The notes under the pieces are model-generated. The model was not told where the DNA came from, made no database searches, and worked only from the letters and a program-made list of their open reading frames with translations. A program made the position numbers and the translations under genes. Of a DNA stretch of 64,000 nucleotides, positions 33,229-47,573 are shown piece by piece; within the stretch, counting starts at the first letter, position 1, and every line of letters begins with the position of its first letter. The stretch is from IMG/VR virus record IMGVR_UViG_3300025652_000046, one strand, 5' to 3'. The stretch comes from an uncultured virus (IMG/VR IMGVR_UViG_3300025652_000046) (taxonomy: Duplodnaviria; Heunggongvirae; Uroviricota; Caudoviricetes).

Positions 33229-33305
33229 TGTTCATTTCCCCTTTTTTGTTTATGTTAAGTGATGTCATTTCACCACCCTCTTTGTTTTTTCTCATATTAA
33301 TTTCC

Positions 33306-34556
33306 TTATCTTTCTCTTACTTGCCAGTTTGAATCCAGCTCCAGTGTACAATCCCCTGTCCCACTCTCGTTAGACACTTCCCAAAATACATACTCATTTT
33401 GGTTTAGTATTGCTGATGTAGTACCTGTGTAGAATGCTACATCACGGCCACCTGAGAGATTGTTTATAGGACGCGTATAAGAGCGCACTATTGTCGGTGT
33501 GCCGCCCGAGACCTTAACTAGGGATATTTTGTAGTCGTTGTTTGCTGTACCTTCTAATACAAAGTTGTGTAAACAAATGTACTCAATTGGTTTTATACCA
33601 ATGTGTCTAAGCTGGCCGTTAGCCGGGCTGTCAAAGTGCTGCAAATCAGAGGCCCCGAAAGTACCTGCTATTGGTAGAGGTGCATTCTGTGTTACTATCT
33701 CAGTTAATACTTCTAAATCGCACTGTGTACTACCACCAACGAATGTATTTGATATACCGAGGTTGTTAGTCCAATCACATGCTAGATTTGAAGCTAGTAG
33801 GTTGCTGAATATATTTACATCATTTGCATCAAATACACCATCACGGCTAAACAATGCTCCTTGAATCTGCACTGTTGAGGGGTTAGGGAACATAGCTGTT
33901 GTGAAGTCGCAGAACGGTTGTAATGTCCCTAAGTCACAGTTAATGTCTGTTAAGAATCTAGAGTTCATTTGAAATGCAGTACCAGCTTTAAACAGTGGTT
34001 CTGTAGTTGTATCACTCATAGACCTGACGATAGATGTTGTTATTCTAAAACCACCTACCCATGTACCATGTAGGGTCAACGATGGTGAACCTCCGAATCT
34101 ACCAGTACCAGTTTCAAGACCCTGTCTGTAGTTATAGATGTCACCTAATGAAGTACAACCATTATAATTGACACGTGAGAATTCAAACGCGTTGAAGCCT
34201 GTTGCATCTGTTAGGTCATACACTTTAGAGTTTGTACCTGATGTTGTTATACTGTAATCTTGCCCTAATACATTCCCAGAACCACCTACCGGAGACACAA
34301 ACATGGTGTAGTTATCTTCACTAGATATTAGTTGAGAGATATCAAAGCTACCACCGCGTAAGTTCAATCCAGTTGAAGGTACTTCTATTGTCTGTGTACC
34401 CATATCGATAATACCATCTATGTAATACTCTATGGTACTGTCCAGTATGCCTGCTAAATCACTAGCTTTCGTTACTACTGTACGAGTGGCTAATGTTTGT
34501 CCGTTTTGCCCCGCCTGGCTGGGTATCATCCCAGGGGAGTTGTAAGTTAAAGACAT
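33306..34556 (-). CDS. Putative virion fibre/appendage protein 2
   Basis: N-terminus MSLTYNSPGMIPSQAGQ shared with 34653-36872; beta-rich. Confidence 0.6.
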   Translation of the reverse strand: MSLTYNSPGMIPSQAGQNGQTLATRTVVTKASDLAGILDSTIEYYIDGIIDMGTQTIEVPSTGLNLRGGSFDISQLISSEDNYTMFVSPVGGSGNVLGQDYSITTSGTNSKVYDLTDATGFNAFEFSRVNYNGCTSLGDIYNYRQGLETGTGRFGGSPSLTLHGTWVGGFRITTSIVRSMSDTTTEPLFKAGTAFQMNSRFLTDINCDLGTLQPFCDFTTAMFPNPSTVQIQGALFSRDGVFDANDVNIFSNLLASNLACDWTNNLGISNTFVGGSTQCDLEVLTEIVTQNAPLPIAGTFGASDLQHFDSPANGQLRHIGIKPIEYICLHNFVLEGTANNDYKISLVKVSGGTPTIVRSYTRPINNLSGGRDVAFYTGTTSAILNQNEYVFWEVSNESGTGDCTLELDSNWQVRER

Positions 34557-34652
34557 TACATAACTCCTATATTAAGTTCTTTAAATTTGTTAGACACAGA
34601 TGTATCCTCGTTGGTTTAGCTTCCTTTCACTGTATTGTACAACTCCTAGTTG

Positions 34653-36872
34653 TTAAATAATTTCGTAGTTAGCAGGTTCTAGTACATATGACACATAGCC
34701 GTACGTATCAGGAACACTTAAAGTTAAGAGGTCAGCTGTAGTTTTTGGTATTTTAAAACCACCAGCAACATCACCGATGTCTACCTGTAAAGCTATTGGC
34801 GGTGCAAATGTACCATACGTCACATTGAGTAGTGGAGCTACCGAAGCATACCACACAAGCCCTGCGTCACCTGTATCAAAAGTAGATTCTACTGATACTA
34901 AATACTTAGCTGTTTTAAGATAACCAATGTTACCACTAACGTTTGTGTTGACTATGATAGTTAAGTTATACAGACCTGCCTTGTTAAAAGGTATCTGCAT
35001 TTTCTGAACACCACCACCAGTTACCCAAGGAAACGGTCTACGTACTTTTGAATACGTTACGTTTGGTAAGTAATTTTGTGGTGTAGGTGTGTTTGGGTCT
35101 ATTTCAGTGTACTCATATAATGGCGCACTAAGTGACTTATTATCAAAATTATCTACCCTAATTGTTGTACTAGGATTAGAGTTTGTTACACCTATCAAAG
35201 CCTGTGTTGAGGCCTGTGCTCCTCCGTCAATATGACCTTCGAAGAAACCCCCAGCGATTGTAAACTCTGTTGGTAACGTACCATCAATTACTGCTAATGC
35301 TCGTTCCCATACAAATTCACTAGGTTCATGGAGTACATCAGTTTCAAGCTTGTCTATGGTTACAGAAGCATTTTTTACGTAAAAACCTTTCGATGTAGTA
35401 CCCTGGCTTAACTCTGCTATTGCTTGTTGTTTAATAGAAATCGTACCGATCTTAAGTTTGTTACCTGCCCCAGTTACTATACCAGCCCAACCATCATAGT
35501 TATTCGCATCGATTCTACCAATGCTAACATCAGATGATATACCTGCAATATCTATAATTGCTAGAAACGATGCCATAGTACCCTGTGTCTTAGATACTAA
35601 TCTGTCAATCCTAAAGTTAGTAGGAGCCGCAGTACCTGCAACGGTTAGCGGAGCATACTTAGTAAAGTTACTTTGGTAAAGCCCAATATCTATGTTATCA
35701 GGTGCGCCTGAAACGTATAACCCAAAGTTAACATCAAAAGTGTATATCTCACTTAACATTATATTAACACAGTCTCCGAAGTCAATAGCTTTAAGAGTAC
35801 CAGAGTCAAAAATTATTTTACTAATTTGACCATCTGCTGCCCCATCACCAAGTCGCAACCCTACCGATGCAGCTAACCATAGATCACTTAGCACGAATCC
35901 TGGGACTCCAGATACTTCAACCGCTATATTAGAGTTCTGTGGTACAACAACCATGCTCTTTAGCAATGGTGCAGGGTCCCTTACATAAATTCCTTTAGTT
36001 GGGAATGCAGTTAAATCCGTAGTATTACTAAAATCTTCTAATTCATACTGGGCCCAACCTTCTGTACCAAGTAAGTAGTCAATTAAACATTTTCCTATAG
36101 ATACGGCAGGTATGACATTAGCGTTGGCACCACCACCACCCAATTGTGGAAACTCTGATGTGCTGTTTAGAATAAGAACCTTACTGGCTCCTTGTTCATC
36201 TCCAAAGCTAGTCATACCTTTTGGCACTGTGTAACCACTTGAAAGGTTATACTCTCCAGACTCAACCTTAGTTGCCCAAGTAAGCGTCTTAGCCACATAT
36301 CCAACTGAGTTGGTGTATACGGTCGTATCGTTTACCCAACCACCTGGGTCATCTCTGTTACCATAGAAGTTCTTTAAAACGACTCCTTGGTTCAGTAAAG
36401 TTGAAGGATCATACGATAGACGCCTAGCATCCCATTCTGAACGTAAAGATAAATGAGCTGCTCTAAATGCGCGAGTATTGTCTGCCGCCACACCTGTACC
36501 GTCAAAAGGAATAGCTCCAGTATAGTCGTAAGGGATTGCACCACACTGTTGTACACCTATTACTCCGTTAGTTGGGAGTAGCATAGCTATCTTTCCACCA
36601 ATTAGGTCATGGTCTCTCCAACCATCTCCAACAGACAGACCTGAGTATAGTTCGTATTCGGCGGGTTCTAATATGAGATACGAAGAACCTCCATAAGGTT
36701 TGCTGTTGTAGTATGCAGCAGTAGTCACCACTTTATTAACTAGTTCTGCTGCGTTGGTTATAGCTAGTAGTGCTGCTACTGATTCAAGCTCTAGTGAAGA
36801 ACTTTGCAATGCTGCTCCTGCTTGCCCTGCCTGAGAAGGTATCATACCAGGGGAGTTATAGGTTAAAGACAT
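34653..36872 (-). CDS. Putative tailspike/depolymerase-like appendage protein 1
   Basis: V.Q.GA...DG...DNT.AF.AA motif typical of the start of pectate-lyase-like beta-helices; start taken at MSLTYNSPG. Confidence 0.65.
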   Translation of the reverse strand: MSLTYNSPGMIPSQAGQAGAALQSSSLELESVAALLAITNAAELVNKVVTTAAYYNSKPYGGSSYLILEPAEYELYSGLSVGDGWRDHDLIGGKIAMLLPTNGVIGVQQCGAIPYDYTGAIPFDGTGVAADNTRAFRAAHLSLRSEWDARRLSYDPSTLLNQGVVLKNFYGNRDDPGGWVNDTTVYTNSVGYVAKTLTWATKVESGEYNLSSGYTVPKGMTSFGDEQGASKVLILNSTSEFPQLGGGGANANVIPAVSIGKCLIDYLLGTEGWAQYELEDFSNTTDLTAFPTKGIYVRDPAPLLKSMVVVPQNSNIAVEVSGVPGFVLSDLWLAASVGLRLGDGAADGQISKIIFDSGTLKAIDFGDCVNIMLSEIYTFDVNFGLYVSGAPDNIDIGLYQSNFTKYAPLTVAGTAAPTNFRIDRLVSKTQGTMASFLAIIDIAGISSDVSIGRIDANNYDGWAGIVTGAGNKLKIGTISIKQQAIAELSQGTTSKGFYVKNASVTIDKLETDVLHEPSEFVWERALAVIDGTLPTEFTIAGGFFEGHIDGGAQASTQALIGVTNSNPSTTIRVDNFDNKSLSAPLYEYTEIDPNTPTPQNYLPNVTYSKVRRPFPWVTGGGVQKMQIPFNKAGLYNLTIIVNTNVSGNIGYLKTAKYLVSVESTFDTGDAGLVWYASVAPLLNVTYGTFAPPIALQVDIGDVAGGFKIPKTTADLLTLSVPDTYGYVSYVLEPANYEII

Positions 36873-36882
36873 TAAGCAACCC

Positions 36883-37170
36883 CTATATCGAGATACCACA
36901 AACAACAGCGAGACCGCTAGTGTTCGTAACATTTACTTTAAATTCAACAGCAGTAACTACTTCTTGTATTACACTAACACCTGTAGCAGTTAGTACATCT
37001 ATAAAATCCATAGAGGCATCAATACGTGCTTGTAACACAACGATATCTCCTGTATTAACCTTGGCTTGAAAAACACAGGTACGATTGTTTATACTGTCTC
37101 GTTGAACAGGGGAGCTAGAATAAGAGGTAGTGTTTACCTCCGCATAGAATTCTTTAAATTTGTTAGACAT
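36883..37170 (-). CDS. Small virion/adaptor-like hypothetical protein
   Basis: AAGGAG RBS; beta-rich 95 aa. Confidence 0.6.
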   Translation of the reverse strand: MSNKFKEFYAEVNTTSYSSSPVQRDSINNRTCVFQAKVNTGDIVVLQARIDASMDFIDVLTATGVSVIQEVVTAVEFKVNVTNTSGLAVVCGISI

Positions 37171-37194
37171 AAATGTCTCCTTGTTAGTGGGTAT

Positions 37195-37671
37195 CTAGAT
37201 TGTTGGAAGGGCTGGCCAGATTACGTCATCTAGTCGCGCTGTTGATGTAGCTATAGTAGAAGGTAAATCCCTTAGCTGTTGTCTATAAACTGCTGCTTCC
37301 TGCTGTTGTATCGATGAAAGGGGAGAGTCCGGGAGTATCATCCAGTCTGTCTCTAAGAGCTTGAAATCTCTCGTCACTCTCACCTCTGCTAAGAATGCAT
37401 CAGTATCCCAACTCCAACCGTGAGGTTCTAAAGTTGTGTCCCAGAATGACCAAGGGTTAGGAGGGAAAGGTACCTGCTTCCACCAATCAGTTTCGTCACT
37501 CCATATATAGGTTCTTAGGAATTCTGAGATGTCAGCTGCTTCTTCTAAGCTGTATACTCTGTGGATAGTCAAGCCGTCTACTTGTGTACCGTCTTCTCCA
37601 TAACTTCCTGAGTCAACTTGTGTTATTTGTATTACGCCTGAATCATCATGTAATGCTATTAAAGGTATCAT
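37195..37671 (-). CDS. Tail fibre assembly chaperone-like protein
   Basis: RD..L.ETDW..LPDSP....YRQQLRDLP....WP. Confidence 0.85.
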   Translation of the reverse strand: MIPLIALHDDSGVIQITQVDSGSYGEDGTQVDGLTIHRVYSLEEAADISEFLRTYIWSDETDWWKQVPFPPNPWSFWDTTLEPHGWSWDTDAFLAEVRVTRDFKLLETDWMILPDSPLSSIQQQEAAVYRQQLRDLPSTIATSTARLDDVIWPALPTI

Positions 37672-37697
37672 ATTTTTATCCTGTTAATTATTTATGT

Positions 37698-38426
37698 TTA
37701 AAAAGGTTTACCACGTATCAGGTATTCGCTAGCGTATCGTGTATAAGTACCAAGAACGCTTTGCTGCCCAAAGTGAGAGATACCAACACCTGAGAAAGTA
37801 TTAGGCGAAGGTCCTGCTGCATTGTAACTTCCTGTGGTGTTAGAAAAAACCATACCTATACTACCGAGGGCACCACCTCCTGATACCATGCCAAATCCTG
37901 CCGCAGGGTACCACTCATCATTATTTATTGTACCGAAAGTGCTAGTGTGGGTAAAACGAGTAGTCCACATGTTATCCACTTGTATTTGATTTGCCGAAAC
38001 AAAAGATCTACTATCAAAAGTCTTGATGGTATAAGCTCCTGACACAGTGTAGGCCTGTAAACCATAGTCTCCTGTAGGAGAATCATTAGTCATAGGCCGA
38101 ACTACTACGTAGTCTACAGTTGTGGGTGTAGTACCGAGGTATCCAACAATGTGAAACTGGAGCTTATAACGTAGAGGACTGGTGGTCCACGTAAAAGACC
38201 TCCCTGTAACTTGAAACATTACGCCCGAGGAAACTGTACCTGTGGGTCTAAAGAGCACTACGTCTCCTGGTTCATATATAACACCTGCGGCACCGTCAGT
38301 AGGGGTATAAGTATTCACGCTAGCAACTGTACCTGACTGTACTGTACATACTCCTTGATAATATTCAGTACTATCAAAGAGTTTAGCACCTGTTGTTCCT
38401 GAAAATGTTTGTATTCCAAATCCCAT
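37698..38426 (-). CDS. Tail tip-associated protein
   Basis: two (F/Y)G(I/L)Q....G....FDS repeats; located in the tail cluster. Confidence 0.65.
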   Translation of the reverse strand: MGFGIQTFSGTTGAKLFDSTEYYQGVCTVQSGTVASVNTYTPTDGAAGVIYEPGDVVLFRPTGTVSSGVMFQVTGRSFTWTTSPLRYKLQFHIVGYLGTTPTTVDYVVVRPMTNDSPTGDYGLQAYTVSGAYTIKTFDSRSFVSANQIQVDNMWTTRFTHTSTFGTINNDEWYPAAGFGMVSGGGALGSIGMVFSNTTGSYNAAGPSPNTFSGVGISHFGQQSVLGTYTRYASEYLIRGKPF

Positions 38427-38428
38427 AA

Positions 38429-38728
38429 TTACCTCGTAAATGCTACATAAAAGAACACTTGACTACTAGTTGCCGTATTCTTGATTTTAAAACCGTCAGT
38501 GATCCTGTTTAGTATCTCATAGTTATCAACAACAGGGGAAGTTAGACTAGGGGTAGGTGCCTCATATACGTATATGTAGTCCACTGCTACTGCAATAATG
38601 TTTGCAGAAGTAACCCCTGCTGCCAATGAAACTTCACCGCTGGCGGTCACTTTTAAAAAGTCATCCATAACAGAGCTATCGAAGGCTAAGTAACCACCAG
38701 CATCGAAGCATTGTAAACCGTATGCCAT
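38429..38728 (-). CDS. Small tail tip-associated protein
   Basis: MAYGLQCFDA.G...FDS, a type commonly found after gpJ-like genes. Confidence 0.65.
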   Translation of the reverse strand: MAYGLQCFDAGGYLAFDSSVMDDFLKVTASGEVSLAAGVTSANIIAVAVDYIYVYEAPTPSLTSPVVDNYEILNRITDGFKIKNTATSSQVFFYVAFTR

Positions 38729-39621
38729 TCTTGTATCCTCCTATTGTGTAATCTGTTTTCTTCTTTTAAACCTTTCATGTGAGCTAATAGAACTCTCATC
38801 CATTTTATAAAACCTACACCATCCCCAGCATAGCTTGTTGCAACTGCAACCCCTGAGATTCTACCATCATACATGTAAGTAGGACGGGATTCATCATGGT
38901 ATACTAATGTAAGAACTTCTCTTTCGTGTAAATCTTTTAATTCTAAGTACTGGAAAGTGTCTTCTCCAACTATGAGGTCTTTGTTATACCTCACTTGTAA
39001 GGTTTTCTTTGACATGAAAACAACACGAGCGGCGAGTTCGTCTATGCCCATTCCATACTCTAATAAACTAATATACTCTTTAAAATCTGGCTTAGCCTCA
39101 GCCAAATTATCGTGCCCTAAGAGGCCTCCTTTCTTTAGAATAGACCAGTCTACTACCGTGGCAGCAATTGCTGTTTTCATAGGAAGGGTATCAGGGTCTA
39201 AGTGCTGTCTACTAGAGTCTACAAGAAGAGAACGTGTTACCAAGTTATCGGGCCAGGAAACAGTTATAGCTCTACTCAAGACTACTGCATCTGGTGGACT
39301 GTCGGAGGCGGCTAGCTCTTTATAGAATTTTACACCTCTATTTGTTAGATAGTCATCACCATCAATTAGTACCGAGTAGTCATTCTCATCCTTCTCAAAT
39401 TGATCTAGGAAAGAGTTTTTACCAGTAGCTGCGGTACCATCACTGTCTGTTATGAAACAGCGAATACCTTCTTCTTCACAATAAGCTTCTGCGGCAGCTT
39501 GGTGCTCTTTATCTAGGGTATTTATTATTACTGTAGTGTCTTCTTTATCTAAAGTTCTAAACTGCCTCTTTAGAGCATATATGTTGTGACTTGTTAATAC
39601 ATAGAATATTCTAGCCTGCAT
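38686..39621 (-). CDS. GT-A fold glycosyltransferase-like protein
   Basis: GKNS, Y..LIDGDDYL (DxD), later GED; start taken at MQARIF. Confidence 0.7.
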   Translation of the reverse strand: MQARIFYVLTSHNIYALKRQFRTLDKEDTTVIINTLDKEHQAAAEAYCEEEGIRCFITDSDGTAATGKNSFLDQFEKDENDYSVLIDGDDYLTNRGVKFYKELAASDSPPDAVVLSRAITVSWPDNLVTRSLLVDSSRQHLDPDTLPMKTAIAATVVDWSILKKGGLLGHDNLAEAKPDFKEYISLLEYGMGIDELAARVVFMSKKTLQVRYNKDLIVGEDTFQYLELKDLHEREVLTLVYHDESRPTYMYDGRISGVAVATSYAGDGVGFIKWMRVLLAHMKGLKEENRLHNRRIQEWHTVYNASMLVVT

Positions 39622-41512
39622 AGTATTCACCTTCTCCTTGATAACGGGCAGACCATACAACTAAGCCATATTTAGTCCCTGATTTCATAGGGAGGCTTTC
39701 GTGAGGGTGAGTCACCTGGGCGGGCCACATTATAAGTTCGCCTGCTGCGTGATTACCGTTGTTCATTTTCTGGCGTGGGAAGTTTAATTCACCACCTTCG
39801 AAGTCAGCATTTAGCTTACAAGCAAAGCTCACTTGGGACATATCGTGGTGCAGGGGTAAAGAGGTCTGCGACTCGCTTGAGTATTTAATTACAAAACAAT
39901 CTCGCAACCCATGCATCTTCAAACACGGCCAATTATTTTGTGCTATTGGGGTTAATGTGTCGTTGAATAGTGCTCTGAACTCTTGTATAAAGCTTTGATC
40001 CTTTAATTGATTCAATCGAATCTCTTGGCCAGGGTACTGATCTCCTGGGAGCGATTCCCAGTTACCATCAGCTTCACAAGCGTCAATCAATCGTCTACAC
40101 CAAGCCTCAGGGATTAACCCGTTGATACCTAGTATCTCTTGGCCCACCGTAAGTTGCTTGTATTCAGGATGGCGAGTGTCTCTTAAAAGACCATTGGTAG
40201 TAGTATACAAATCTTCGAATATCTGTTTAGTCTCTTCACCACCGTTACCATGTATTACACAAGTGGTACAACGGTTCTCTGAGTTTATGATCCAACCACT
40301 GTCTAAGCGAATAGAGTTTTCCGATGCGGATAAGCAAAAGAAAATGTAGCTCTCGTGATCTAGTACAGCGTTATACATTCCTGTTACGAATTGTTTTTGT
40401 ACGTATAACTGATCATCCTCGTGGTTCTCTATAGGTGCTGAGAACATTTTACGTAGTTCTCTTACTGTACCAATAAACGTACCACTGTTTAAAAACCTGT
40501 AACCGTTATTCGGTTGTGGAAAATGTACTTCCATTGAGGTATCTGGCCAGCAAAGTTTCTCTGCGGAGAACACAATCTCCTTACCAAAGCTATAGTACCT
40601 TTCCATTATAACATCTTCATCAACATTTATGAATGTGTCATATCCATCTAGAAACATAACAACATCGTTGTCATTAAGGGTCTCTAAATGCTTTTTAATT
40701 AGATTAATTTTCTGACCACCGCCTGGGCCAAGTGCCATGTTGCCACCTTCCCACTTAACACCCGCACCTAAGTTAGTGATGTTATAGCGTTTGTCGTCTG
40801 TTAGTTTACGAGTTTTGCTCTCGTCTGTTCCTACTGTTATTACATGTAGCATGTGATCTTCCCATATATCTGTTAATGATTCAGTTTCGCTCGTATCAAA
40901 AGCGCCCGGCTCAGGGTCAATAATGTTGTCCCTGAATGCCGCTGCTTTAAAGTATAGTTTTTGATTTAGTGCTTCCCACCTATGTTGATCTAGTATCGCG
41001 GGGAGTACTTCATCCGCAGGAATAAGGGGGTTATTCTTGCAGTAGTCTAGTAACGCCTTTGCTACCTTTGGTTTTATATAGTAAGCGTTAGTCCAGTAGC
41101 AAAAGCCACCTGTTTCAAGAAGAGCATCTAGCTGTACAGCCTCTCCTGAAACATGATTCTTACTCAAGTATAGAAAATCGTAAGTATCAGAGTAACCCTG
41201 CACAAGCGCCTGGTAGTCTCTGTTATTAATTACACAATCGTCTTCTAACACTATAATACCTTCGTTTGCTGCTACACAAATCTCCCAAATTTTAATATGA
41301 GATAAGATACACCCTACTTCACCTTTAGTCATACGCCGATTGTGATAAGGATCTCTCCAATAACGATCTGACGTATAGGGCATTATAGAAGAGGGAGTGT
41401 GTTCCTTACCATCAACCGCTGGAATACGGTAGGCGTTAGGGAAGAGCTTTTCCGTTTTAGCCCGTTTGTCCTTACACCGATCGAGGTTAATAAAAAACTC
41501 TTTTATCGACAT
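39611..41512 (-). CDS. Three-domain collagen-modifying enzyme: GT25 (COLGALT-like) + PLOD-type glycosyltransferase + 2OG-Fe(II) lysyl hydroxylase
   Basis: RDPYHNRRMTKGEVGCILSH/EDD/YWT.AY/PADEVLP; W.GG....GGGQK/MFLDGYD/FSAE..CWP/FLNSG.FIG/DDQL; FVIKY...Q.SL.LHHD/FEGG/THPHE.LP..GTKY. Confidence 0.9.
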   Translation of the reverse strand: MSIKEFFINLDRCKDKRAKTEKLFPNAYRIPAVDGKEHTPSSIMPYTSDRYWRDPYHNRRMTKGEVGCILSHIKIWEICVAANEGIIVLEDDCVINNRDYQALVQGYSDTYDFLYLSKNHVSGEAVQLDALLETGGFCYWTNAYYIKPKVAKALLDYCKNNPLIPADEVLPAILDQHRWEALNQKLYFKAAAFRDNIIDPEPGAFDTSETESLTDIWEDHMLHVITVGTDESKTRKLTDDKRYNITNLGAGVKWEGGNMALGPGGGQKINLIKKHLETLNDNDVVMFLDGYDTFINVDEDVIMERYYSFGKEIVFSAEKLCWPDTSMEVHFPQPNNGYRFLNSGTFIGTVRELRKMFSAPIENHEDDQLYVQKQFVTGMYNAVLDHESYIFFCLSASENSIRLDSGWIINSENRCTTCVIHGNGGEETKQIFEDLYTTTNGLLRDTRHPEYKQLTVGQEILGINGLIPEAWCRRLIDACEADGNWESLPGDQYPGQEIRLNQLKDQSFIQEFRALFNDTLTPIAQNNWPCLKMHGLRDCFVIKYSSESQTSLPLHHDMSQVSFACKLNADFEGGELNFPRQKMNNGNHAAGELIMWPAQVTHPHESLPMKSGTKYGLVVWSARYQGEGEYYAG

Positions 41513-41577
41513 TGTGGACCCTCTTCTAACTGTAGATTCTTTCTCATATCATTATTCCTTATATTTAGTTTAAATTA

Positions 41578-44500
41578 TTAGGCCAGGTTGCCTATCTTAA
41601 CACGGATGACTCCTGTGCCATCTCTGATTTCAATACGGTTACTAGCACCATTCATATTTATAGAGTTATTACCAGTACCATTAGATACGGTGCTTAGCTT
41701 AACCCAAGTACCCACATCATTGTACACCCACATCTGGTCTGTTTGTATGTGCCAGTAGATATCGTATTCTTGTACAGGGGAGCCCTTAATAGCAAGGATC
41801 ATCGCAGCGGCTTCTGTAGGGTTAGCTATTGATGCACCTGTATCGATAGCAACAGTAGCGCCGGAATCTCCAGTGTCCCCTGTAGCACCTATGACCCCCT
41901 GAGGGCCAGTTGGTCCTTTAAGACCTTTAACACCTTGTGGACCTTGGAGACCTTGAAGACCTTGAAGACCTTTGAGACCTTTGAGACCTTGGGCACCTTG
42001 TGCACCTTGGAGACCTTGGAAACCTTGGAGACCTATGATACCTTTGAGACCTTTCTGACCTTGAAGACCTTGGAGACCTTGAAGACCTTGTGGACCTAAG
42101 ATACCTTTGAGACCTTTCTGACCTTGGAGACCTTGGAGACCTTGAAGACCTTGGAGACCTGTAATACCTTTGAGACCTTTCTGACCTTGAAGACCTTGGA
42201 GACCTTGAAGACCTTGTGGACCTAAGATACCTTTGAGACCTTTCTGACCTTGGAGACCTTGGAGACCTTGAAGACCTTGGAGACCTGTAATACCTTTGAG
42301 ACCTTTCTGACCTTGAAGACCCTGGAGACCTTGAAGACCTTGTGGACCTAAGATACCTTTGTCACCTTGGAGACCTTGGAGACCTTGGGCACCTTGTACA
42401 CCTTGTACACCCTTGACGCCAATAACACCTTGTTCCCCTTTAGCACCAGTTGGACCTTGAGCACCCTCTACTGTGAACGGGCCTGTGAAATCAGCAACCG
42501 TAATGTTAACAGCCGCATCAGTAACAGCATATCTCTGCCATCTTATACTAGTAACACCACCAGGTACCTGAGTAGGATTTGGCCACCAGAAGTAAGTACC
42601 TCCAGCAGTTGCCCACTGATTCGAAGACAACGGAGCAGTACCCGCTATGTCTAAGTCTGAAATTATTTCTTCAAAAGATATATCAGTGATGGCTAGATTT
42701 TGCGTATAAACGGAACAATCGAAACGGTAAGTACCACTTGGTGCAGCTGAGGAAGTGTATATTACAATCCCATTTTTTAAGTAGGTTACTACGGTTCCAT
42801 CATTTACTACAGCAAGAATATCTCCAGGTAGATAAGTAGTAACTGGAGTACCACTTATATTGACTCCTTCTTCAAAAATCCATAAGGAGTTACTAGCCCC
42901 ATAAATAGCATAGTCGATTTTGTCGAAGTCAGGATCAGTACCTGGATCATTAGACATACCAAATATAACTTGTTTAGTTGGTGTGCCAGCGGTAGTGTCT
43001 GGAAAAGTAGCTGTAGAAGTACAAGTAGTATAAGCCTGTGGCGAATAAGCACCTGCATTCCAATCTGGGCTAACCGATGTTTTGGTAAACGTGGTACCAA
43101 CCATGCTACCCGTGGCAATATTTGAAGTGACAAAGGTAGTTGCCTCTGGCTCTAAATAGTCTATCGGAGCGTTAGTGTAATAGGAGAAGTTAGTTTCTCC
43201 GGTATTACCTACAGCGCCCTGTAAACCTTGACCACCTTGTGGACCTTGAGGACCTTGTACACCTTTGATACCAATGTCACCTTTCTGACCTTGGAGACCT
43301 TGGGCACCTTGGAGACCTTGTGAACCTAAGATACCTTTGAGACCCTTGTCACCTTGGAGACCCTGGAGACCTTGTGGACCTAAAACACCTTTGATACCTT
43401 TGTCACCCTGGAGACCTTGTAGACCTTGGAGACCTTGGAGACCTTGGGCACCTAAGATACCTTTGAGACCCTTGTCACCTTGAAGACCCTGGAGACCTTG
43501 AAGACCTAAAACACCTTTGATACCCTTGTCACCTTGTAGACCTTGTAGACCTTGGAGACCTTGGAGACCTTGGGCACCTAAGATACCTTTGAGACCCTTG
43601 TCACCTTGAAGACCCTGAAGACCTTGAAGACCTAAAACACCTTTGATACCCTTGTCACCTTGTAGACCTTGAAGACCTTGGGCACCTTGGAGACCTTGGA
43701 AACCTATGATACCCTTGATACCTTTGTCACCTTGGAGGCCTTGGGCACCTTGTAGACCTTGGAAACCTAAGATACCTTTGAGGCCTTTGTCACCTTGGAG
43801 ACCTTGTTCACCTTGGAGACCTTGGAAACCTACGATACCTTTGAGACCTTTATCACCTTGTTCACCTTGGAGACCTTGTATGCCTTTATCTCCTATCTCA
43901 CCTTTAACGCCTTGGTCACCTGGGATACCTTGGGTACCTTGGATACCTTTAACGCCCTCAGGCCCTAAGTCTCCTTTGACTCCCTCAGCACCTTTGAGGC
44001 TGATATTAGAAACGTTTACAGGTCCAATTACAACTGAGTTGGTAGACCTCTTTCCTGTTAGGCTAACTGACCTAATACGGTAGTATATATCAAGCTGCGG
44101 GTTTCCGGGTATGTGGTAAGTTATCTCATTTGAGGTTTCACTAATAGTTACCCATTGGTTGTCATCTGTGGCAGCATTCTCACGAGCTTCAACAATATAC
44201 TTGTCTACTTGGCTGCCGAACACATCTCCATCCCAACGAATAAATACCCGTTGTTTATCTTCATCTACATAGTAACCAGTCACTGTATCAGTGTCTAAGT
44301 CTATTACTGGAATAGCGGTGTTAGATATGAATGGTGGGAAGGTCTTGTAACTAACGATAGGTGGATATGTACTGGCTACCGTATCTGCTATGTTCCATGA
44401 CAAATCAGTAGCGTTAACACGGAAAGCCTCAATCCTTACGGTCATGTTCTCAGTAAGGGTAACTCCTGTTACCAATGCGGTATCGTCATCACTTGTTAGA

Positions 44501-46266
44501 TCATTTAGAACTGAGTTGAACTTTATGTAGTCACCCGGTTCCAGATTGTAGGCCTCAGCGAATGTCTCAAATTCATATATGACAGAGCGCCTGGACTCAC
44601 GAACAAATTGCTCTGCTCTTGAAGTAGCGTGGTAAGGGTCTACGATAGCGTCTATAGTTAGCGCAGCATTCAGTACAACCCCATTATCCTCAGCTAAGAG
44701 TTGGTCATGTAGAGCAGAGCCTGTTGGAGGCCAAGTAGCACTTGCTGAACTAAAATCTTCTTGCTCATTTCTATAATTGACTGTACACTGGTTCAAACGT
44801 TCTGTGGCTTTAGGATAGCTAATTTTAATCTCTGATGTACGTAATATGTCATCTGTGATTATAAGGGTACCCTCTGCGCTAGCTTTTAGTTCAGCTTGGG
44901 TTGCAGGGTACTGTAGCTGTAGCTTATACTTGCCTTCCGACCATACCAGATCCGCATTACCCATACCCAGTAGAATCTCATCTACGTTATCCCTTACAGG
45001 TTTTGATGGATCTAGAGTTACATTACACTCGTATAACGGTAGTGTATCTGCTGGTGTTATCGTCTCTACCCATACCAGTGAGGATTCCTGTACAAGGAAC
45101 TCAGTATTGATATCAATAACATCCGCATTAGGACCTGGGACGATACTTGATATTGGTATATTGAAAGTATTAGTAGACGCCTCATAGTAAGCGCCAACGG
45201 TTTCGGTTATGCTGTATATATTGTCTCCACCTCTATGGAACGACAAACCGCCTGCATCTGAAGCGGCAAACACACCTGTGCCATTAATGAAGTCTGTTCC
45301 AAAGTCCTCTATACTTACCTCAACATCATTACTAGATTCAAGCTCTAAGTAGTCAACATTCTGCTGAGTGGACAAATTCACACCCGATGCATGCCACGAA
45401 GGTGACGTTGCGCTATCGAAGTAATTACCGCCATCAATCTTACCTTGTCGTGCGAATCCGCCCAGCCCTAACTCAGGGTTGACAGTCGAAGCACAAAGGA
45501 CAGCGGCATTATAGAAGGACTCTAGGTTAACATCTTCTAATGCTAGCCCCATGCCGTAGTGGGCAGTCAAGTAATCTAGTAGTACCAGCGCAGCGTTGTT
45601 AGAATATGTTAAAGTACCTGCACGATTATAAGAATAGAAATAAGCACCAGGACTACCAATCCTCCCGATATTAGGAATCTTCTTTCCTTTTATGAAGAAG
45701 CTCATAGCTGGTATACCAGAGTACTGAGGTTCATTATTGTCTAAGTGGAATATACCAGTACAATAGGCAATCTCTGTAAACTTGTTATTAGCATTCATAC
45801 CATTGGCAGTGGCCAAGGGGTCAGCTATCCCTCCGTCTGGGAAGGTACGTAGCATCTGCCCGAAATGCAGGGATTCATTATGGAAGTCTTGATCATCTAC
45901 TTCTATATGTGTAAAGCTTTCTATACCTCCCTGACATACAGCATATTGGCATGTTAAGAACTGGTTACGCCTTGATTTTGATTTGCTGTGAGTTATACTG
46001 GCACCCATGTCTCTAACAGACCACTGCTTAGTCCCTGCTGGTAGTGTACCGTCATACGTATAAGAAGAGGATGTTTTTGCTGCGGTAAGTACTGCTCCTA
46101 CTTTGTTCCTACCGTAGCATATGGGAAGGGACCGTGTTTCACCAGTGACGGTTGCTAGGAAGCCTTTACGCGCTTGCGCATCTGCCTCCATCCTTTTTTT
46201 CATTTTGGCTTGTTTCGAGTAAGTGAATACCGCAGAAACAATTGCTATTACAAGACTCCATGCCAT
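41578..46266 (-). CDS. Tail tip / central fibre protein (gpJ-like) with FN3-like domain and two collagen tracts
   Basis: LPICYGR, SNNAALVLLDYL...YG.G, LEPGDYI, YYRIRSV..G..S; Gly-X-Y tracts; C-terminal RVKIGNL; follows the Dit and gpL-like genes. Confidence 0.88.
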   Translation of the reverse strand: MAWSLVIAIVSAVFTYSKQAKMKKRMEADAQARKGFLATVTGETRSLPICYGRNKVGAVLTAAKTSSSYTYDGTLPAGTKQWSVRDMGASITHSKSKSRRNQFLTCQYAVCQGGIESFTHIEVDDQDFHNESLHFGQMLRTFPDGGIADPLATANGMNANNKFTEIAYCTGIFHLDNNEPQYSGIPAMSFFIKGKKIPNIGRIGSPGAYFYSYNRAGTLTYSNNAALVLLDYLTAHYGMGLALEDVNLESFYNAAVLCASTVNPELGLGGFARQGKIDGGNYFDSATSPSWHASGVNLSTQQNVDYLELESSNDVEVSIEDFGTDFINGTGVFAASDAGGLSFHRGGDNIYSITETVGAYYEASTNTFNIPISSIVPGPNADVIDINTEFLVQESSLVWVETITPADTLPLYECNVTLDPSKPVRDNVDEILLGMGNADLVWSEGKYKLQLQYPATQAELKASAEGTLIITDDILRTSEIKISYPKATERLNQCTVNYRNEQEDFSSASATWPPTGSALHDQLLAEDNGVVLNAALTIDAIVDPYHATSRAEQFVRESRRSVIYEFETFAEAYNLEPGDYIKFNSVLNDLTSDDDTALVTGVTLTENMTVRIEAFRVNATDLSWNIADTVASTYPPIVSYKTFPPFISNTAIPVIDLDTDTVTGYYVDEDKQRVFIRWDGDVFGSQVDKYIVEARENAATDDNQWVTISETSNEITYHIPGNPQLDIYYRIRSVSLTGKRSTNSVVIGPVNVSNISLKGAEGVKGDLGPEGVKGIQGTQGIPGDQGVKGEIGDKGIQGLQGEQGDKGLKGIVGFQGLQGEQGLQGDKGLKGILGFQGLQGAQGLQGDKGIKGIIGFQGLQGAQGLQGLQGDKGIKGVLGLQGLQGLQGDKGLKGILGAQGLQGLQGLQGLQGDKGIKGVLGLQGLQGLQGDKGLKGILGAQGLQGLQGLQGLQGDKGIKGVLGPQGLQGLQGDKGLKGILGSQGLQGAQGLQGQKGDIGIKGVQGPQGPQGGQGLQGAVGNTGETNFSYYTNAPIDYLEPEATTFVTSNIATGSMVGTTFTKTSVSPDWNAGAYSPQAYTTCTSTATFPDTTAGTPTKQVIFGMSNDPGTDPDFDKIDYAIYGASNSLWIFEEGVNISGTPVTTYLPGDILAVVNDGTVVTYLKNGIVIYTSSAAPSGTYRFDCSVYTQNLAITDISFEEIISDLDIAGTAPLSSNQWATAGGTYFWWPNPTQVPGGVTSIRWQRYAVTDAAVNITVADFTGPFTVEGAQGPTGAKGEQGVIGVKGVQGVQGAQGLQGLQGDKGILGPQGLQGLQGLQGQKGLKGITGLQGLQGLQGLQGQKGLKGILGPQGLQGLQGLQGQKGLKGITGLQGLQGLQGLQGQKGLKGILGPQGLQGLQGLQGQKGLKGIIGLQGFQGLQGAQGAQGLKGLKGLQGLQGLQGPQGVKGLKGPTGPQGVIGATGDTGDSGATVAIDTGASIANPTEAAAMILAIKGSPVQEYDIYWHIQTDQMWVYNDVGTWVKLSTVSNGTGNNSINMNGASNRIEIRDGTGVIRVKIGNLA
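41854..42465 (-). repeat. Collagen tract 2 (about 68 Gly-X-Y triplets)
   Basis: 9-nt tandem units with 63/126-nt higher-order period. Confidence 0.95.
43192..43992 (-). repeat. Collagen tract 1 (about 89 Gly-X-Y triplets)
   Basis: GLQ/GDK/GLK/GIK/GIL triplets. Confidence 0.95.
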
Positions 46267-46817
46267 TATTTTTTACCCCATTTGACTTCTGTTTCTTTAG
46301 CAGCGGCGTATACCAGATCCATTGAGGAATCGAATACATCGATGTTACGTTGATAATTTTTATCTGTCATACGATTGTTAGTCCTGTCCAATGCTGCGAA
46401 GGGGGAAGAACATTCTATAACGGCATTCTTTGATCCTTCTGCTGGATTGGTTTCGATCGAGACACCATCGATACGTCCTTTGTAGACTGTATCAAGGTCT
46501 GTGTAGTTTCCCTCAATACCTAATCGAACGGTAACAGGGGTACCTAATGCGTTTGCATCAAAGTAAGCCTTAAATTCATTATTGAAATCTAGTAATTTAA
46601 TACGATATACTTCTCTATCAAGTATAGAAGTAAGTCGAGGTGGTTCAAGTTCAGATAAACCGCCATCGGATATATAAGTATTACCACCAACATCTATGCT
46701 GAAAGGTAGATCGGTTAACCTAACAGTGCCGCCAGTAAACTCCATATCGAGTAGGAGGTAGGGCTGTGATAATCCTGATACTAAAGCAGAAATTATTGAG
46801 CTGGGTGTATTTTTCAT
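46266..46817 (-). CDS. Minor tail / tail tip protein (gpL-like position)
   Basis: RLTD......G.TY, Y.GRID, IEC.SP; lies between Dit and the tip protein. Confidence 0.75.
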   Translation of the reverse strand: MKNTPSSIISALVSGLSQPYLLLDMEFTGGTVRLTDLPFSIDVGGNTYISDGGLSELEPPRLTSILDREVYRIKLLDFNNEFKAYFDANALGTPVTVRLGIEGNYTDLDTVYKGRIDGVSIETNPAEGSKNAVIECSSPFAALDRTNNRMTDKNYQRNIDVFDSSMDLVYAAAKETEVKWGKK

Positions 46818-46944
46818 TTTAAATTCTCTCTTTTGAATGTATATCCCTTTGTGGGTTGTGATATGCGCGCCTCTTTATGTACACAGTATATTACTGTTTT
46901 CATAAGTTTCTCCTTTAAAAAGAGAGAGGCCCGGAGACCACTAT

Positions 46945-47562
46945 CTATAATGCTTCAATGAGGTTTATTGTTCCCATCTCGGATAGGATGCCATCAGTGT
47001 AAGTGATGCCCTGTACGTTAGTTATATCTCTATAAGCCGTGAATGTTATATTGTCTGTTATGTCTCGGTAAAGAAACGAGGTAGCGTTAGGTACCGCTGT
47101 TCTTAAGCTCGGATAAATATTTAGCGTGCCATAACCAGCTCCAGCAGAGGTGGTAGTGCTAGTAACTAAATAAATTTTATCGTGGTTAGCGAACTTTACA
47201 AAACGGCCTTTGTTAATTGTCTCACCCGTAGTCATACCAGTTAATGCAACACTACTATCCCCAGCAGCATGATTTGTAGAAACTGTCAATGCGCTATTAC
47301 TAGTACCTTGTAGTATGGTCTCACCACGAACATTCAGCTGTGGCATTTCGAGATTCACTACATCATGGAACCCTGTAATCATATCTGCAAAGGTAGATGT
47401 AGCATCAGTCATTACTACTTTAAATTCCATCTCCCATCTTTGTGCGCCTTGTTTTACTCTACGGACTTTTAATGTTACAGTATCCGCAGAGAAAACAGGT
47501 TCATTAGATGAGATACGGAATGGAGTTACGATTTCCTGTTCTTGGAAGTAATATACTGCCAT
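46945..47562 (-). CDS. Distal tail protein-like
   Basis: follows tape measure; QRWE, G.F.KF.NH.KIY, I.P.LR. Confidence 0.75.
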   Translation of the reverse strand: MAVYYFQEQEIVTPFRISSNEPVFSADTVTLKVRRVKQGAQRWEMEFKVVMTDATSTFADMITGFHDVVNLEMPQLNVRGETILQGTSNSALTVSTNHAAGDSSVALTGMTTGETINKGRFVKFANHDKIYLVTSTTTSAGAGYGTLNIYPSLRTAVPNATSFLYRDITDNITFTAYRDITNVQGITYTDGILSEMGTINLIEAL

Positions 47563-47573
47563 TCCTTTTCTCC

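Follow-up and report, generated by a model that had tools for sequence, protein, structure and literature searches.

A three-domain phage protein with homology to COLGALT and PLOD catalytic domains, encoded beside a collagen-like tail protein

The glucosyl-galactosyl disaccharide carried by hydroxylysine is seen as typifying animal collagen. Glycosylation of collagen hydroxylysine counts as a trait of animals, mimivirus being the known exception (PMC12279948, PMC9546862 and PMC13382579, in their accessible parts). We analysed a window of 64,000 nucleotides from an uncultured tailed phage (IMG/VR record IMGVR_UViG_3300025652_000046) and found that one of its genes encodes, in a single chain of 633 residues, homologues of three domains, the catalytic one of COLGALT and the glycosyltransferase and hydroxylase ones of PLOD, an assignment supported by sequence, profile, fold and catalytic residues. 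The protein combines homology to the animal enzymes, conserved catalytic residues and a confidently predicted fold with a repeated genomic link to collagen-like genes in which lysine is found only at the Y position of the G-X-Y triplets. All three types of catalytic domain are common to the phage protein and the human pair LH3/PLOD3 and GLT25D1/COLGALT1 (8zgc, 6fxk, 9evj), but in humans they are divided between two proteins of about 620-740 residues each, which act in a complex.

Three catalytic domains in one chain

The gene occupies positions 39611..41512 on the minus strand, stop codon included, and both ends coincide exactly with those of the open reading frame, which starts with ATG; GAAGAGGG, a Shine-Dalgarno-like stretch, lies about 7 nt 5' of this codon. 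A previous sequence-only reading had described the product as a fusion of a COLGALT GT25 domain, a PLOD glycosyltransferase and a PLOD lysyl hydroxylase. The motifs on which it relied are all present, the matches go far beyond chance, and the domains do follow one another in this order from the N- to the C-terminus. The AF2 model is confident over the whole chain (pLDDT 93.4, pTM 0.82). A search of the PDB sequences returned LH3 with an E-value of 1.8e-38 in two aligned stretches covering the glycosyltransferase and the hydroxylase, and the best solved structures for the individual domains were LH3, COLGALT1 and mimivirus L230 and R699. The kinship of the domains was judged by scores against solved structures. 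The family profile scored 283 bits with LH3, 184 with R699, 163 with COLGALT1 and 83 with the L230 hydroxylase, compared to 65 bits for a bacterial GT25 beta-1,4-galactosyltransferase and 64 bits for mimivirus R655. The glycosyltransferase domains have their best sequence and fold matches in the human pair, and by sequence the hydroxylase is also closest to LH3; Foldseek identities are about 20-29% per domain. The sequence-only reading could have been overturned by a grouping with bacterial LPS GT25s and generic prolyl hydroxylases; judged by score, the domains group otherwise, the profile search of solved structures returning no prolyl hydroxylase at E <= 0.01.

Residue equivalences were mapped by hand from printed alignments to LH3 and GLT25D1/COLGALT1, human numbering being anchored on landmarks given in parts of PMC6082870, PMC12987934 and PMC12003778. 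Nearly all of the metal, donor and acceptor residues named for the human enzymes are kept, and a set of 62 homologues sharing 24-74% identity shows no change at E90, D91, D92, D167, D289, D292, H421, H555, D557 and H604.

Residues 1-215 (40868..41512, minus strand) are the counterpart of the C-terminal domain of COLGALT1 (CGT/GT2), the catalytic one, and form a predicted hydroxylysine galactosyltransferase. They match Pfam Glyco_transf_25 (PF01755) over residues 4-169 (E 3.2e-24, 86.3 bits for a cut-off of 24) and COLGALT1 in the PDB sequences (E 8e-17 to 4e-16); the family profile scored 152-163 bits with COLGALT1, and the modelled domain superposed on 9evk with an rmsd of 2.4 across 217 columns. 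The motifs RDPYHNRR (53-60), EDD (90-92), YW (139-140) and PADEVLP (165-171) are distributed along the domain. E90-D91-D92 is the equivalent of the Mn2+ motif E435-D436-D437 of GLT25D1 (62/62), Y139-W140 of its hydroxylysine-binding Y494-W495, D167 of the catalytic base D522 (62/62) and E168 of the amino-group anchor E523 (58/62); the spacing from the tryptophan to the aspartate, 27 residues, equals that of COLGALT1. H72 is also invariant (62/62), while K470 and R354 of GLT25D1 are replaced by Asn and Lys. For the lid loop, whose S569 and T571 touch the phosphate of the donor in COLGALT1, the consensus S-D-I-E of the family profile aligns to S-D-T-E of COLGALT1, and the candidate residues S208, T210 and E211, with a conservation of 90% or more among 21 close homologues, were placed by profile alignment and spacing rather than by direct alignment. 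Bacterial GT25 lipo-oligosaccharide galactosyltransferases (8xlz; Pasteurellaceae, Helicobacter, Vibrio) share the fold and resemble the first half of the domain. They are however single-domain proteins of about 250 residues without PLOD fusion, 26-33% identical to residues 1-160 only, and scored 30 bits in the sequence search compared to 64 bits for COLGALT1.

The middle domain (residues 220-430; 40223..40855, minus strand) is a predicted galactosylhydroxylysine glucosyltransferase. It matches Pfam GT_PLOD (PF25342) over residues 220-427 with an E-value of 2.5e-49 (168.1 bits for a cut-off of 27), the LH3 glycosyltransferase with 100 bits and mimivirus R699 with an E-value of 3e-27 in the PDB sequences, and its model superposed on 6wfv with a TM-score of 0.83 and an rmsd of 2.3. 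Its motifs are WEGG (254-257), GGGQK (264-268), DGYD (289-292), FSAE (315-318), CWP (321-323), FLNSG (340-344) and EDDQL (365-369). In LH3 the Mn2+ site consists of a DxxD motif and a histidine, and UDP stacks on W75 and Y114 (available part of PMC6082870). The ligands D112, D115 and H253 are found as D289, D292 and H421 (62/62), W75 as W254 (61/62) and Y114 as Y291 (Y in 57 and F in 5 of the 62 homologues). The gating W145 is W322 (61/62), the acidic pair D190/D191 is D366 (61/62) and D367 (60/62), and V80 is replaced by Met.

Residues 452-633 (39614..40159, minus strand) form a PLOD-type Fe(II)/2-oxoglutarate lysyl hydroxylase domain. Its match to Pfam 2OG-FeII_Oxy_3 (residues 544-620, E 1.2e-5, 26.6 bits) falls just below the 27-bit cut-off, and in the PDB its only sequence matches at E <= 1 were LH3 (1.8e-8) and mimivirus L230 (1.7e-6; 1.3e-5 when the whole enzyme was used as the query). 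In Foldseek the L230 hydroxylase 6ax6 ranked on top (TM 0.74, rmsd 2.3, E 3e-12), with viral and bacterial P4Hs below it (6e-8 and weaker). The motifs LHHD (554-557) and THPHE (601-605) contain H555, D557 and H604, equivalent to the Fe2+ triad H667, D669 and H719 of LH3 (62/62); Y656 is kept as Y544 and C691 is replaced by L576. R729, which binds the 2-oxoglutarate carboxylate in LH3, is conservatively changed to K614, a position held by K in 50 and R in 12 of the 62 homologues. The alignment shows GTRY in LH3 where the phage protein has GTKY (612-615), as the sequence-only reading had proposed for PLODs.

Two non-catalytic scaffold domains of the human enzymes, AC of LH3 and GT1 of COLGALT1, are both missing. 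In the PDB alignment the glycosyltransferase and the hydroxylase are separated by about 355 residues in LH3 and by only about 76 in the phage chain, which bears out the absence of the PLOD accessory domain; the PLOD-type glycosyltransferase match stops at residue 427 and the hydroxylase starts at about residue 452, leaving, in the alignment and the AF2 secondary structure, no segment of the size of AC. The COLGALT1 match spans only residues 316-507 of its 571-residue chain, and the N-terminal non-catalytic GT-A domain (GT1/NGT) was not found in the phage protein. Since it is a phage protein with no obvious signal peptide when its N-terminus is inspected by eye, the enzyme should act in the bacterial cytoplasm.

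The adjacent collagen-like protein and the tail module

Directly 5' of the enzyme gene, after a gap of 65 nt, a gene on the same strand (41578..46266, minus strand) encodes a collagen-like tail protein of 1562 residues, which the sequence-only reading had overlooked. It matches Pfam Collagen (PF01391, E 6.7e-75), PF13550 through a Phage-tail_3 N-terminal part, and tail fibre PHROGs. Two collagen tracts are present, one of 89 uninterrupted G-X-Y triplets (residues 759-1025; 43192..43992, minus strand) and one of 68 (residues 1268-1471; 41854..42465, minus strand). Lysine occupies the Y position in 41 of the 157 triplets and proline in only one, while at the X position lysine is outside the eight commonest residues. 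The tracts are rich in G, L and Q and poor in proline, and we assume that they form triple helices. The Y-position lysine is followed by G-I/L/V in 36 of the 41 cases and by G-D/E in 4; with so few of the latter, we ruled out that these lysines merely serve as KGD/KGE salt-bridge sites. The gene context and the Y-position lysines indicate that this protein is probably the substrate of the enzyme. The predicted target motif, X-Lys-Gly with Lys at Y, would be that of human LH3 and COLGALT1.

On the other side, a gene for a protein of 311 residues (38686..39621, minus strand) is preceded by AAGGAG, and its ATG overlaps the stop codon of the enzyme gene by 11 nt. This protein has no Pfam match. 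It is modelled with a GT-A fold (AF2 pLDDT 94, pTM 0.91), its best Foldseek matches are TarP, AvpGT and TarS (E about 6e-8, TM 0.45-0.52), its ESM Atlas matches are GT2-like, and D87-G-D89-D90 is invariant in 38 homologues; from its model and these matches, it is a probable fourth glycosyltransferase. Further along lies a tail fibre assembly chaperone (37195..37671, minus strand; PF16778, E 2.4e-14; phrog_4912). The enzyme gene is thus located within the tail/fibre module. From PHROGs and the relatives of the major capsid protein, namely those of roseophages DSS3_VP1 and DSS3_PM1 (36% identity) and of Pelagibacter siphophages, we judged the source phage to be a marine siphovirus. A tRNA scan found none, and megablast of positions 30000-50000 of the window against 50,697 phage records gave no match.

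A family linked to collagen-like genes

The enzyme belongs to phrog_61 (E 2.7e-89, residues 45-623 on profile positions 48-629 of 689) and has 562 relatives in IMG/VR as well as homologues in cultured phages. The domain reading proposed earlier stands, but the fusion is no singular case. Cyanophages S-PRM1 (gp162) and S-CAM9 (gp218), phages S-8S53/55/56 and roseophage CRP-6 (gp58) carry phrog_61 members with the same three domains, 33-38% identical over 91-99% of the length, their genes being located after tail fibre genes; compared to these, the 633-residue enzyme is a divergent siphovirus member. Their annotation reads 'hypothetical protein' or '2OG-Fe(II) oxygenase', and neither their records nor phrog_61 mention a collagen-related enzyme or function. 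In the collagen genes beside the enzyme, lysine holds the Y position in 23 of 59 triplets in S-PRM1, 22 of 59 in S-CAM9 and 26 of 99 in CRP-6. The relatives also include forms of 720-1540 residues, and some have a fused methyltransferase or a second GT25 domain; cluster records for 10 relatives, such long forms among them, gave no informative name or taxon.

We then considered 81 IMG/VR loci, taken from the best 80 of the 562 relatives and from a single-protein search. A collagen-like ORF lies beside the enzyme on the same strand in 47 of the 48 loci with at least 3 kb upstream, and the link is present in 7 of the 10 enzyme clusters defined at 50% identity. The exception among these loci is L079, where 3.6 kb of upstream and 10 kb of downstream sequence contain no collagen-like ORF. 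Over the 54 distinct nearest collagen-like ORFs, lysine was found at 2146 of 8704 Y positions and at none of the 8704 X positions, compared to 227 and 66 of 8914 for 80 control collagen-like ORFs from IMG/VR. At least 15% of the Y positions were lysine in 51/54 linked ORFs and 12/80 controls, a difference whose p value of 1.4e-17 is overstated, the controls being neither habitat-matched nor phylogenetically independent. No enzyme was seen in the flanks of these 12 control ORFs, nor in the four of their contigs that were searched whole, which are just 18-63% complete. In related loci, genes for an FkbM methyltransferase, an NAD-dependent sugar epimerase and additional small oxygenases lie between the collagen and enzyme genes.

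A profile scan of genome contigs with a 21-row alignment revealed a split form of the module in chromosomes of sponge-symbiont bacteria, where an ORF with the hydroxylase only and an ORF combining GT25 and GT_PLOD directly follow collagen-like genes with lysine at Y and none at X. The pairing of enzyme and collagen genes is common in ocean phages and present in some bacteria. Mimivirus also encodes a viral set acting on its own collagen-like proteins, L230 (hydroxylase and glucosyltransferase), R699 (GGT) and R655 (putative GT25), but in this giant virus, which infects amoebae, the activities are spread over three separate proteins, and R655 is, by the profile scores above, far more distant from the phage GT25 than COLGALT1 is. 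Prokaryotic dioxygenases modifying adjacent collagen-like or tail-collar proteins were likewise predicted by Iyer, Abhiman, de Souza and Aravind in 2010; in the accessible part of that paper (PMC2938197), the systems have no GT25, PLOD glycosyltransferase or PLOD-type lysyl hydroxylase. Our literature search, which covered few subscription journals, found neither a phage-encoded lysyl hydroxylase with glycosyltransferase nor hydroxylysine in phage tails.

Proposed pathway and competing readings

From homology and gene context, we consider it likely that the upstream tail protein is the substrate and that the enzyme both hydroxylates and glycosylates it at X-Lys-Gly sites. Modification would take place in the cytoplasm, before three chains wind into the triple helix. 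The C-terminal Fe(II)/2-oxoglutarate domain would first hydroxylate the Y-position lysine of G-X-K-G. The N-terminal GT25 domain would then place a first sugar on the new hydroxyl, by homology beta-galactose from UDP-Gal, with E90-D91-D92 holding Mn2+ and D167 acting as the base, and the PLOD-type glycosyltransferase, its Mn2+ bound by D289, D292 and H421, would add a second sugar, by homology alpha-glucose from UDP-Glc. A single chain would thus substitute for the animal LH3-COLGALT1 complex without its two non-catalytic scaffold domains, and the translationally coupled GT-A gene downstream may lengthen or vary the glycan. Through the modification the virion may gain stability, hydration, shielding of a proline-poor triple helix from proteases, or contact with a receptor. 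It is from homology and gene context, too, that we infer catalysis of all three steps; their order, the sugars and a possible relevance to how the animal enzymes originated, to which the sequence-only reading had also pointed, are proposed with the same reserve.

Another product on the same tail protein is rather unlikely. Instead of galactose then glucose, the enzyme could attach glucose directly to hydroxylysine, use other UDP-sugars or initiate a longer glycan built by the GT-A protein. The available part of PMC9546862 describes L230 as a hydroxylysyl glucosyltransferase that attaches glucose directly to hydroxylysine, so a PLOD-type glycosyltransferase need not perform a second step; the coupling of a fourth glycosyltransferase-like gene, the methyltransferase, epimerase and small oxygenase genes of related loci and the extra domains fused in some relatives also point in this direction. 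However, the hydroxylysine-binding YW, the EDD motif and the catalytic base of GLT25D1, a galactosyltransferase, are all retained in the GT25 domain, the middle domain lies about equally close to the glucosyltransferases LH3 and R699, and the epimerase beside the enzyme in one locus (L006) would fit a supply of UDP-Gal.

A target other than the tail protein, whether host lipopolysaccharide or envelope glycans, with which GT25s are usually annotated, a different protein of the virion or the host, or some small molecule, appears very improbable. It is suggested by homologues named 'GR25 family glycosyltransferase involved in LPS biosynthesis', by the PHROGs category of the family (auxiliary metabolic genes), by cyanophage dioxygenase clusters read as secondary-metabolite genes in the portion of Iyer et al. 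2010 (PMC2938197) available, and by the well-flanked locus devoid of a nearby collagen gene. Against it stand the collagen-like neighbour in the 47 other well-flanked loci, the total exclusion of lysine from X, the recurrence of the linkage in bacteria in split form, the preference of the GT25 profile for COLGALT1 over the bacterial galactosyltransferase, and a fused hydroxylase that matches collagen lysyl hydroxylases alone; the LPS-GT25 and secondary-metabolite readings were rejected on synteny and scores. We find it scarcely credible, and least probable of all, that one of the domains is a mere scaffold like the N-terminal domain of COLGALT1 or the accessory domain of LH3. Degenerate GT-A domains do occur in both animal families (accessible parts of PMC12003778 and PMC12987934), and the oxygenase is the weakest Pfam match of the three, but in each of the three domains the metal and catalytic residues show no variation among the 62 homologues, down to 24% identity, which would be unexpected for a scaffold.

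With hydroxylation and glycosylation of the tail protein as the preferred reading, we tentatively raise a broader proposal, which we hold to be possible though doubtful. Ocean tailed phages, including cultured cyanophages and roseophages, and some sponge symbionts would put hydroxylysine-linked Glc-Gal on collagen-like fibres by means of a minimal single-chain or two-gene module, and the COLGALT and PLOD enzymes of animals and giant viruses would descend from this module instead of having been invented by animals. Glycosylated human collagen cannot yet be produced in bacteria, partly since the human glycosyltransferases express poorly there (PMC9546862, available part), and an enzyme evolved for the bacterial cytoplasm would be an obvious candidate for this purpose. 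The natural fused, split and permuted forms offer material for studying the emergence of the animal LH3-COLGALT1 complex. If the preferred reading is true, collagen-lysine chemistry would extend to bacterial viruses and bacteria, and phage tail fibres would carry a widespread, unrecognised post-translational modification.

Domains, catalytic centres and fold of the enzyme

The sequence-only reading had interpreted a 633-residue ORF as a fusion of a COLGALT domain with the glycosyltransferase (GT) and lysyl hydroxylase (LH) domains of PLOD. The ORF lies exactly where it had been placed (39611..41512, minus strand, ATG start), preceded by a purine-rich ribosome-binding stretch, and every motif quoted from it was found at its place in the protein. 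Pfam recognised Glyco_transf_25 (residues 4-169, E 3.2e-24), GT_PLOD (residues 220-427, E 2.5e-49) and 2OG-FeII_Oxy_3 (residues 544-620, E 1.2e-5; 26.6 bits, slightly under the 27-bit cut-off). Among solved structures, the whole enzyme matched human LH3 in two stretches, GT and LH (E 1.8e-38), as well as mimivirus R699 (3e-27), COLGALT1 (4e-16) and the hydroxylase domain of mimivirus L230 (1.3e-5). About 355 LH3 residues separate the two matched stretches compared to about 76 in the enzyme, so that the accessory domain of LH3 lacks a counterpart in the enzyme. The N-terminal domain alone aligned to the C-terminal GT domain of COLGALT1 (8e-17, 64 bits) and scored 30 bits against a bacterial GT25 beta-1,4-galactosyltransferase and 17 bits against mimivirus R655. 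At E <= 1 the C-terminal domain alone matched only LH3 (1.8e-8) and mimivirus L230 (1.7e-6), with no prolyl hydroxylase among its solved-structure matches. A profile of 62 homologues gave 283 bits for LH3, 184 for R699, 163 for COLGALT1, 83 for the mimivirus L230 LH domain, 65 for bacterial GT25 and 64 for R655; beyond these collagen enzymes and GT25/R655 proteins it reached only PiuC-type hydroxylases, at 2e-4. The earlier reading was to be given up if the domains sided with generic prolyl hydroxylases and with the GT25s of bacterial LPS synthesis. Judged by these scores, they do not.

The AlphaFold2 model of the enzyme, computed from a 62-row alignment, had a mean pLDDT of 93.4 and a pTM of 0.82. 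Foldseek against the PDB ranked full-length LH3 on top (E 2e-30), followed by the isolated LH3 GT domain (6wfv, TM 0.83, rmsd 2.3) and R699, then by COLGALT1 (9evk, 217 columns at rmsd 2.4) and by the hydroxylase of mimivirus L230 (6ax6, TM 0.74, rmsd 2.3), with bacterial GT25 and prolyl hydroxylases placed lower.

Catalytic residues were mapped manually from printed alignments, with numbering anchored on published landmarks of LH3 (V80, W75, D112, Y114, D115, W145, D187-191, H253, Y656, H667, D669, C691, H719 and R729, as given in PMC6082870) and GLT25D1 (G377, R354, E435-D436-D437, K470, R471, Y494-W495, D522, E523, S569 and T571, as given in PMC12987934 and PMC12003778). W75, D112, Y114, D115, W145, D190, D191 and H253 of the LH3 GT domain correspond to W254, D289, Y291, D292, W322, D366, D367 and H421 of the enzyme, and Y656, H667, D669 and H719 of the LH domain to Y544, H555, D557 and H604. 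Likewise, E435, D436, D437, Y494, W495, D522 (the catalytic base) and E523 of GLT25D1 become E90, D91, D92, Y139, W140, D167 and E168. Other positions differ: R729, C691 and V80 of LH3 are replaced by K614, L576 and M259, and K470 and R354 of GLT25D1 by N119 and K16. Across 62 homologues with 24-74% identity to the enzyme, H72, E90, D91, D92, D167, K268, D289, D292, E318, H421, H555, D557, H602 and H604 are invariant in all 62, and position 614 holds Lys in 50 of them and Arg in the remaining 12. Such conservation in every centre argues that all three are under selection and that none serves as a scaffold. The N-terminal GT-A domain of COLGALT1 is described as non-catalytic (PMC12003778, PMC12987934) and as similar to the LH3 accessory domain (PMC12003778). 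In contrast to COLGALT1 and LH3, the phage enzyme has neither non-catalytic domain and retains only three catalytic-type domains.

Collagen-like genes beside the enzyme gene in phages

The window belongs to a siphovirus-type phage. The genes listed in its module all lie on the minus strand and comprise head genes, major capsid, tape measure, distal tail protein, a 1562-residue tail protein, the enzyme, a 311-residue protein, small unknown genes and a tail-fibre assembly chaperone. The gene of the 1562-residue tail protein (41578..46266, minus strand), the predicted substrate, is upstream of the enzyme gene, with 65 nt between the two. Pfam identified Phage-tail_3 and Collagen (E 6.7e-75) domains in this protein, which contains two uninterrupted, G-L-Q-rich tracts of 89 and 68 G-X-Y triplets (residues 759-1025 and 1268-1471). 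Lys occupies Y in 41 of the 157 triplets and is outside the eight commonest X residues, while Pro is found at Y only once in 157, so that a prolyl 4-hydroxylase would have almost nothing to act on. We also considered that the lysines might be placed mainly for KGD/KGE salt bridges, and rejected this since only 4 of the 41 Y-position lysines are followed by G-D/E; G-I/L/V follows in 36.

Other genes of the window, all on the minus strand, deserve mention in their own right. Inside the tail-fibre region, 31540-33228 encodes a protein of 562 residues whose carbohydrate-esterase domain is of the SASA type (PF03629, E 3e-6); it may be a receptor-modifying deacetylase. A 1483-residue protein (57670-62121) combines a Phage_Mu_F head-morphogenesis domain (residues 143-246) with a domain of single-subunit RNA polymerases (PF00940, residues 1065-1437, 23.8 bits for a cut-off of 22; phrog_414); it may be an RNA polymerase that a siphovirus carries in its virion. 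A stand-alone 756-residue RNA polymerase is encoded at 23583-25853 (PF00940, E 1.5e-72), and a ribonucleotide reductase large subunit at 8972-10984 contains a thioredoxin-like segment (residues 578-649, phrog_22).

Full-length homologues of the enzyme (33-38% identity) were detected by tblastn in 11 of 50,697 phage records, carried by the Synechococcus myoviruses S-PRM1, S-CAM9 and S-8S53/55/56, a marine single-cell virus and Roseobacter phage CRP-6, and labelled hypothetical or 2OG-Fe(II) oxygenase. In S-PRM1, S-CAM9 and CRP-6 the enzyme gene stands one to four genes past a collagen-like tail fibre gene, with Lys at Y in 23/59, 22/59 and 26/99 triplets, respectively. A family-alignment scan of IMG/VR returned 562 stretches with relatives; the top 80 were retained and, together with loci from a first scan, gave a sample of 81 (L005-L085), L004 being omitted as identical to the window. 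In 59 of the 81 loci a collagen-like ORF of 15 triplets or more lies on the strand of the enzyme gene, and in 21 of the 22 others the upstream DNA is shorter than 3 kb. The proportion reached 47/48 for loci with at least 3 kb upstream and 39/40 where both flanks are that long. Of the 54 distinct nearest collagen-like ORFs, 45 precede the enzyme gene and 9 follow it, with a median of 1048 nt in between; Lys stands at 2146 of their 8704 Y positions and at none of the 8704 X positions. As a control we collected IMG/VR collagen-like loci by a degenerate G-X-Y pattern and removed two loci with weak enzyme-family matches; in the 80 distinct control ORFs, 227 of 8914 Y positions and 66 of 8914 X positions are Lys. 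Lys reached at least 15% of Y positions in 51/54 linked ORFs compared to 12/80 controls (Mann-Whitney p 1.4e-17, an overstated value, given the kinship among loci and the lack of habitat matching in the controls). Of 10 enzyme clusters defined at 50% identity, 7 show the link; in the three that do not, which comprise four loci, flanks are short everywhere but in L079, an IMG/VR contig of 67.8 kb. L079 is the sole well-flanked enzyme locus lacking a collagen-like ORF: a small 2OG oxygenase precedes its enzyme gene, and no G-X-Y run of at least 5 triplets occurs in the locus DNA searched. Its collagen-like partner may be located elsewhere, because the locus begins at the contig end.

On the other side of the enzyme gene in the window, the gene of the 311-residue protein (38686-39621, minus strand) is translationally coupled to it, its ATG at 39621 lying 11 nt within the enzyme gene end with AAGGAG upstream. 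The 311-residue protein has no Pfam match and is predicted to adopt a GT-A fold (pLDDT 94, pTM 0.91), with TarP, AvpGT and TarS as best solved-structure matches (E ~6e-8, TM 0.45-0.52) and concordant results from the ESM Atlas. Its family is virus-only, and D87-G-D89-D90 is invariant among 38 homologues. We regard this protein as an optional extra, perhaps one more sugar transferase, since homologues adjoin the enzyme only in L007 and L042. Accessory genes occupy the gap between collagen and enzyme genes in L021, L043, L052, L079, L080, L006 and L070. Across these loci they encode one or two small 2OG-FeII_Oxy_3 proteins (158-203 residues), an FkbM-type methyltransferase, another methyltransferase or an NAD-dependent sugar epimerase, which suggests further modifications and sugar-nucleotide supply in related phages.

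Fused, split and permuted relatives

We scanned prokaryotes with one genome per species, obtained 234 relatives and kept the best 80 stretches (79 distinct loci). Most matches listed are single-domain or partial, among them GT25 only in Pasteurellaceae, Helicobacter, Vibrio and others (26-33% identity across residues 1-160) and PLOD-type GT only in some Bacteroidota. Among the 16 best loci, five contain a fused three-domain ORF, in MAGs of Bacteroidia, Neomarinimicrobiota, Poriferihabitaceae, Sansalvadorimonas and a Pseudomonadota bacterium. Nine have a split form, with an LH-only ORF (~200-400 residues, ~170-180 of them aligned) and a GT25+GT_PLOD ORF; the LH ORF immediately precedes the GT ORF in 8 of the 9, an order permuted relative to the phage. 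These nine are in MAG chromosomes or contigs of Arenicellales, Porisulfidus, Poriferihabitaceae and other Gammaproteobacteria, and in one alphaproteobacterial MAG contig. The cultured actinomycete Streptomyces kronopolitis (bacterial locus L230, distinct from the mimivirus protein; 9701-12591) has a GT_PLOD+LH ORF (526 residues) followed by a GT25 ORF (310 residues). At 11 of the 16 best loci, these genes have collagen-like neighbours in which Lys is found at Y and never at X. That the three domains were independently fused, split and permuted beside such genes is strong comparative evidence that they act together on Lys-at-Y collagen-like proteins.

Loci L226-L236 include sponge-associated and other marine MAG chromosomes (Arenicellales, Poriferihabitaceae, Porisulfidus), where collagen-like genes, in arrays of up to several, have Lys and Pro at Y and are followed by the split LH gene and the GT25+GT_PLOD gene. 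L234 additionally has a 2200-residue ORF with 722 G-X-Y triplets.

A word-indexed protein search gave 252 matches at E <= 1e-3; PF25342 and PF01755 are both present in 119 of the 120 listed, most of ~610-660 residues. An exhaustive search of cluster representatives gave 3859 matches at E <= 1e-3, including 218 at <= 1e-30. Shorter variants are GT_PLOD+LH (417 residues) and GT25+GT_PLOD (~460-720 residues). Longer ones (the P0128, P0122, P0165, P0238 group of relatives) combine a methyltransferase with GT25 and GT_PLOD (875 residues) or a doubled GT25 with GT_PLOD and an oxygenase (942 residues), and the largest, of 900-1540 residues, have a long insert ahead of the oxygenase; in forms of 1100-1540 residues this insert is unassigned and precedes either the oxygenase or an OGFOD2-like domain. 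None of these variants bears an informative name in its source database.

Proposed pathway and its precedents

From the observed homology, residue conservation, fold and gene linkage we infer a chemistry, an order of steps, a pair of sugars and a benefit to the virion. The tail protein would be synthesised in the host cytoplasm during infection, and the LH domain, using Fe2+, 2-oxoglutarate and O2, would hydroxylate its Y-position lysines ahead of triple-helix formation. The GT25 domain would then attach a first sugar and the PLOD-type GT domain a second, which homology suggests to be Gal and Glc. A different glycan is nevertheless a live alternative to Gal then Glc, because mimivirus L230 is reported to put glucose straight onto hydroxylysine (PMC9546862).

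The family is already in databases (phrog_61; Pfam domains on many metagenomic proteins), without a collagen-related function. We found no description of a phage-encoded lysyl hydroxylase and glycosyltransferase, or of hydroxylysine in phage tails, in the literature searched; most subscription journals lie outside it, so that absence from print is not proven. A 2022 review of prokaryotic collagen, as far as its accessible text goes, mentions viral collagen modification for mimivirus only and phage collagens as short capsid segments (PMC8968730). For other families of bacterial dioxygenases, Iyer et al. (2010) predicted a role in modifying collagen-like proteins, and they interpreted cyanophage dioxygenase arrays as secondary metabolism (PMC2938197). 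The hydroxylation and glycosylation of collagen lysines, until now known in animals and a giant virus, are predicted here for a minimal fused enzyme of tailed phages, with a tail protein as its putative target.
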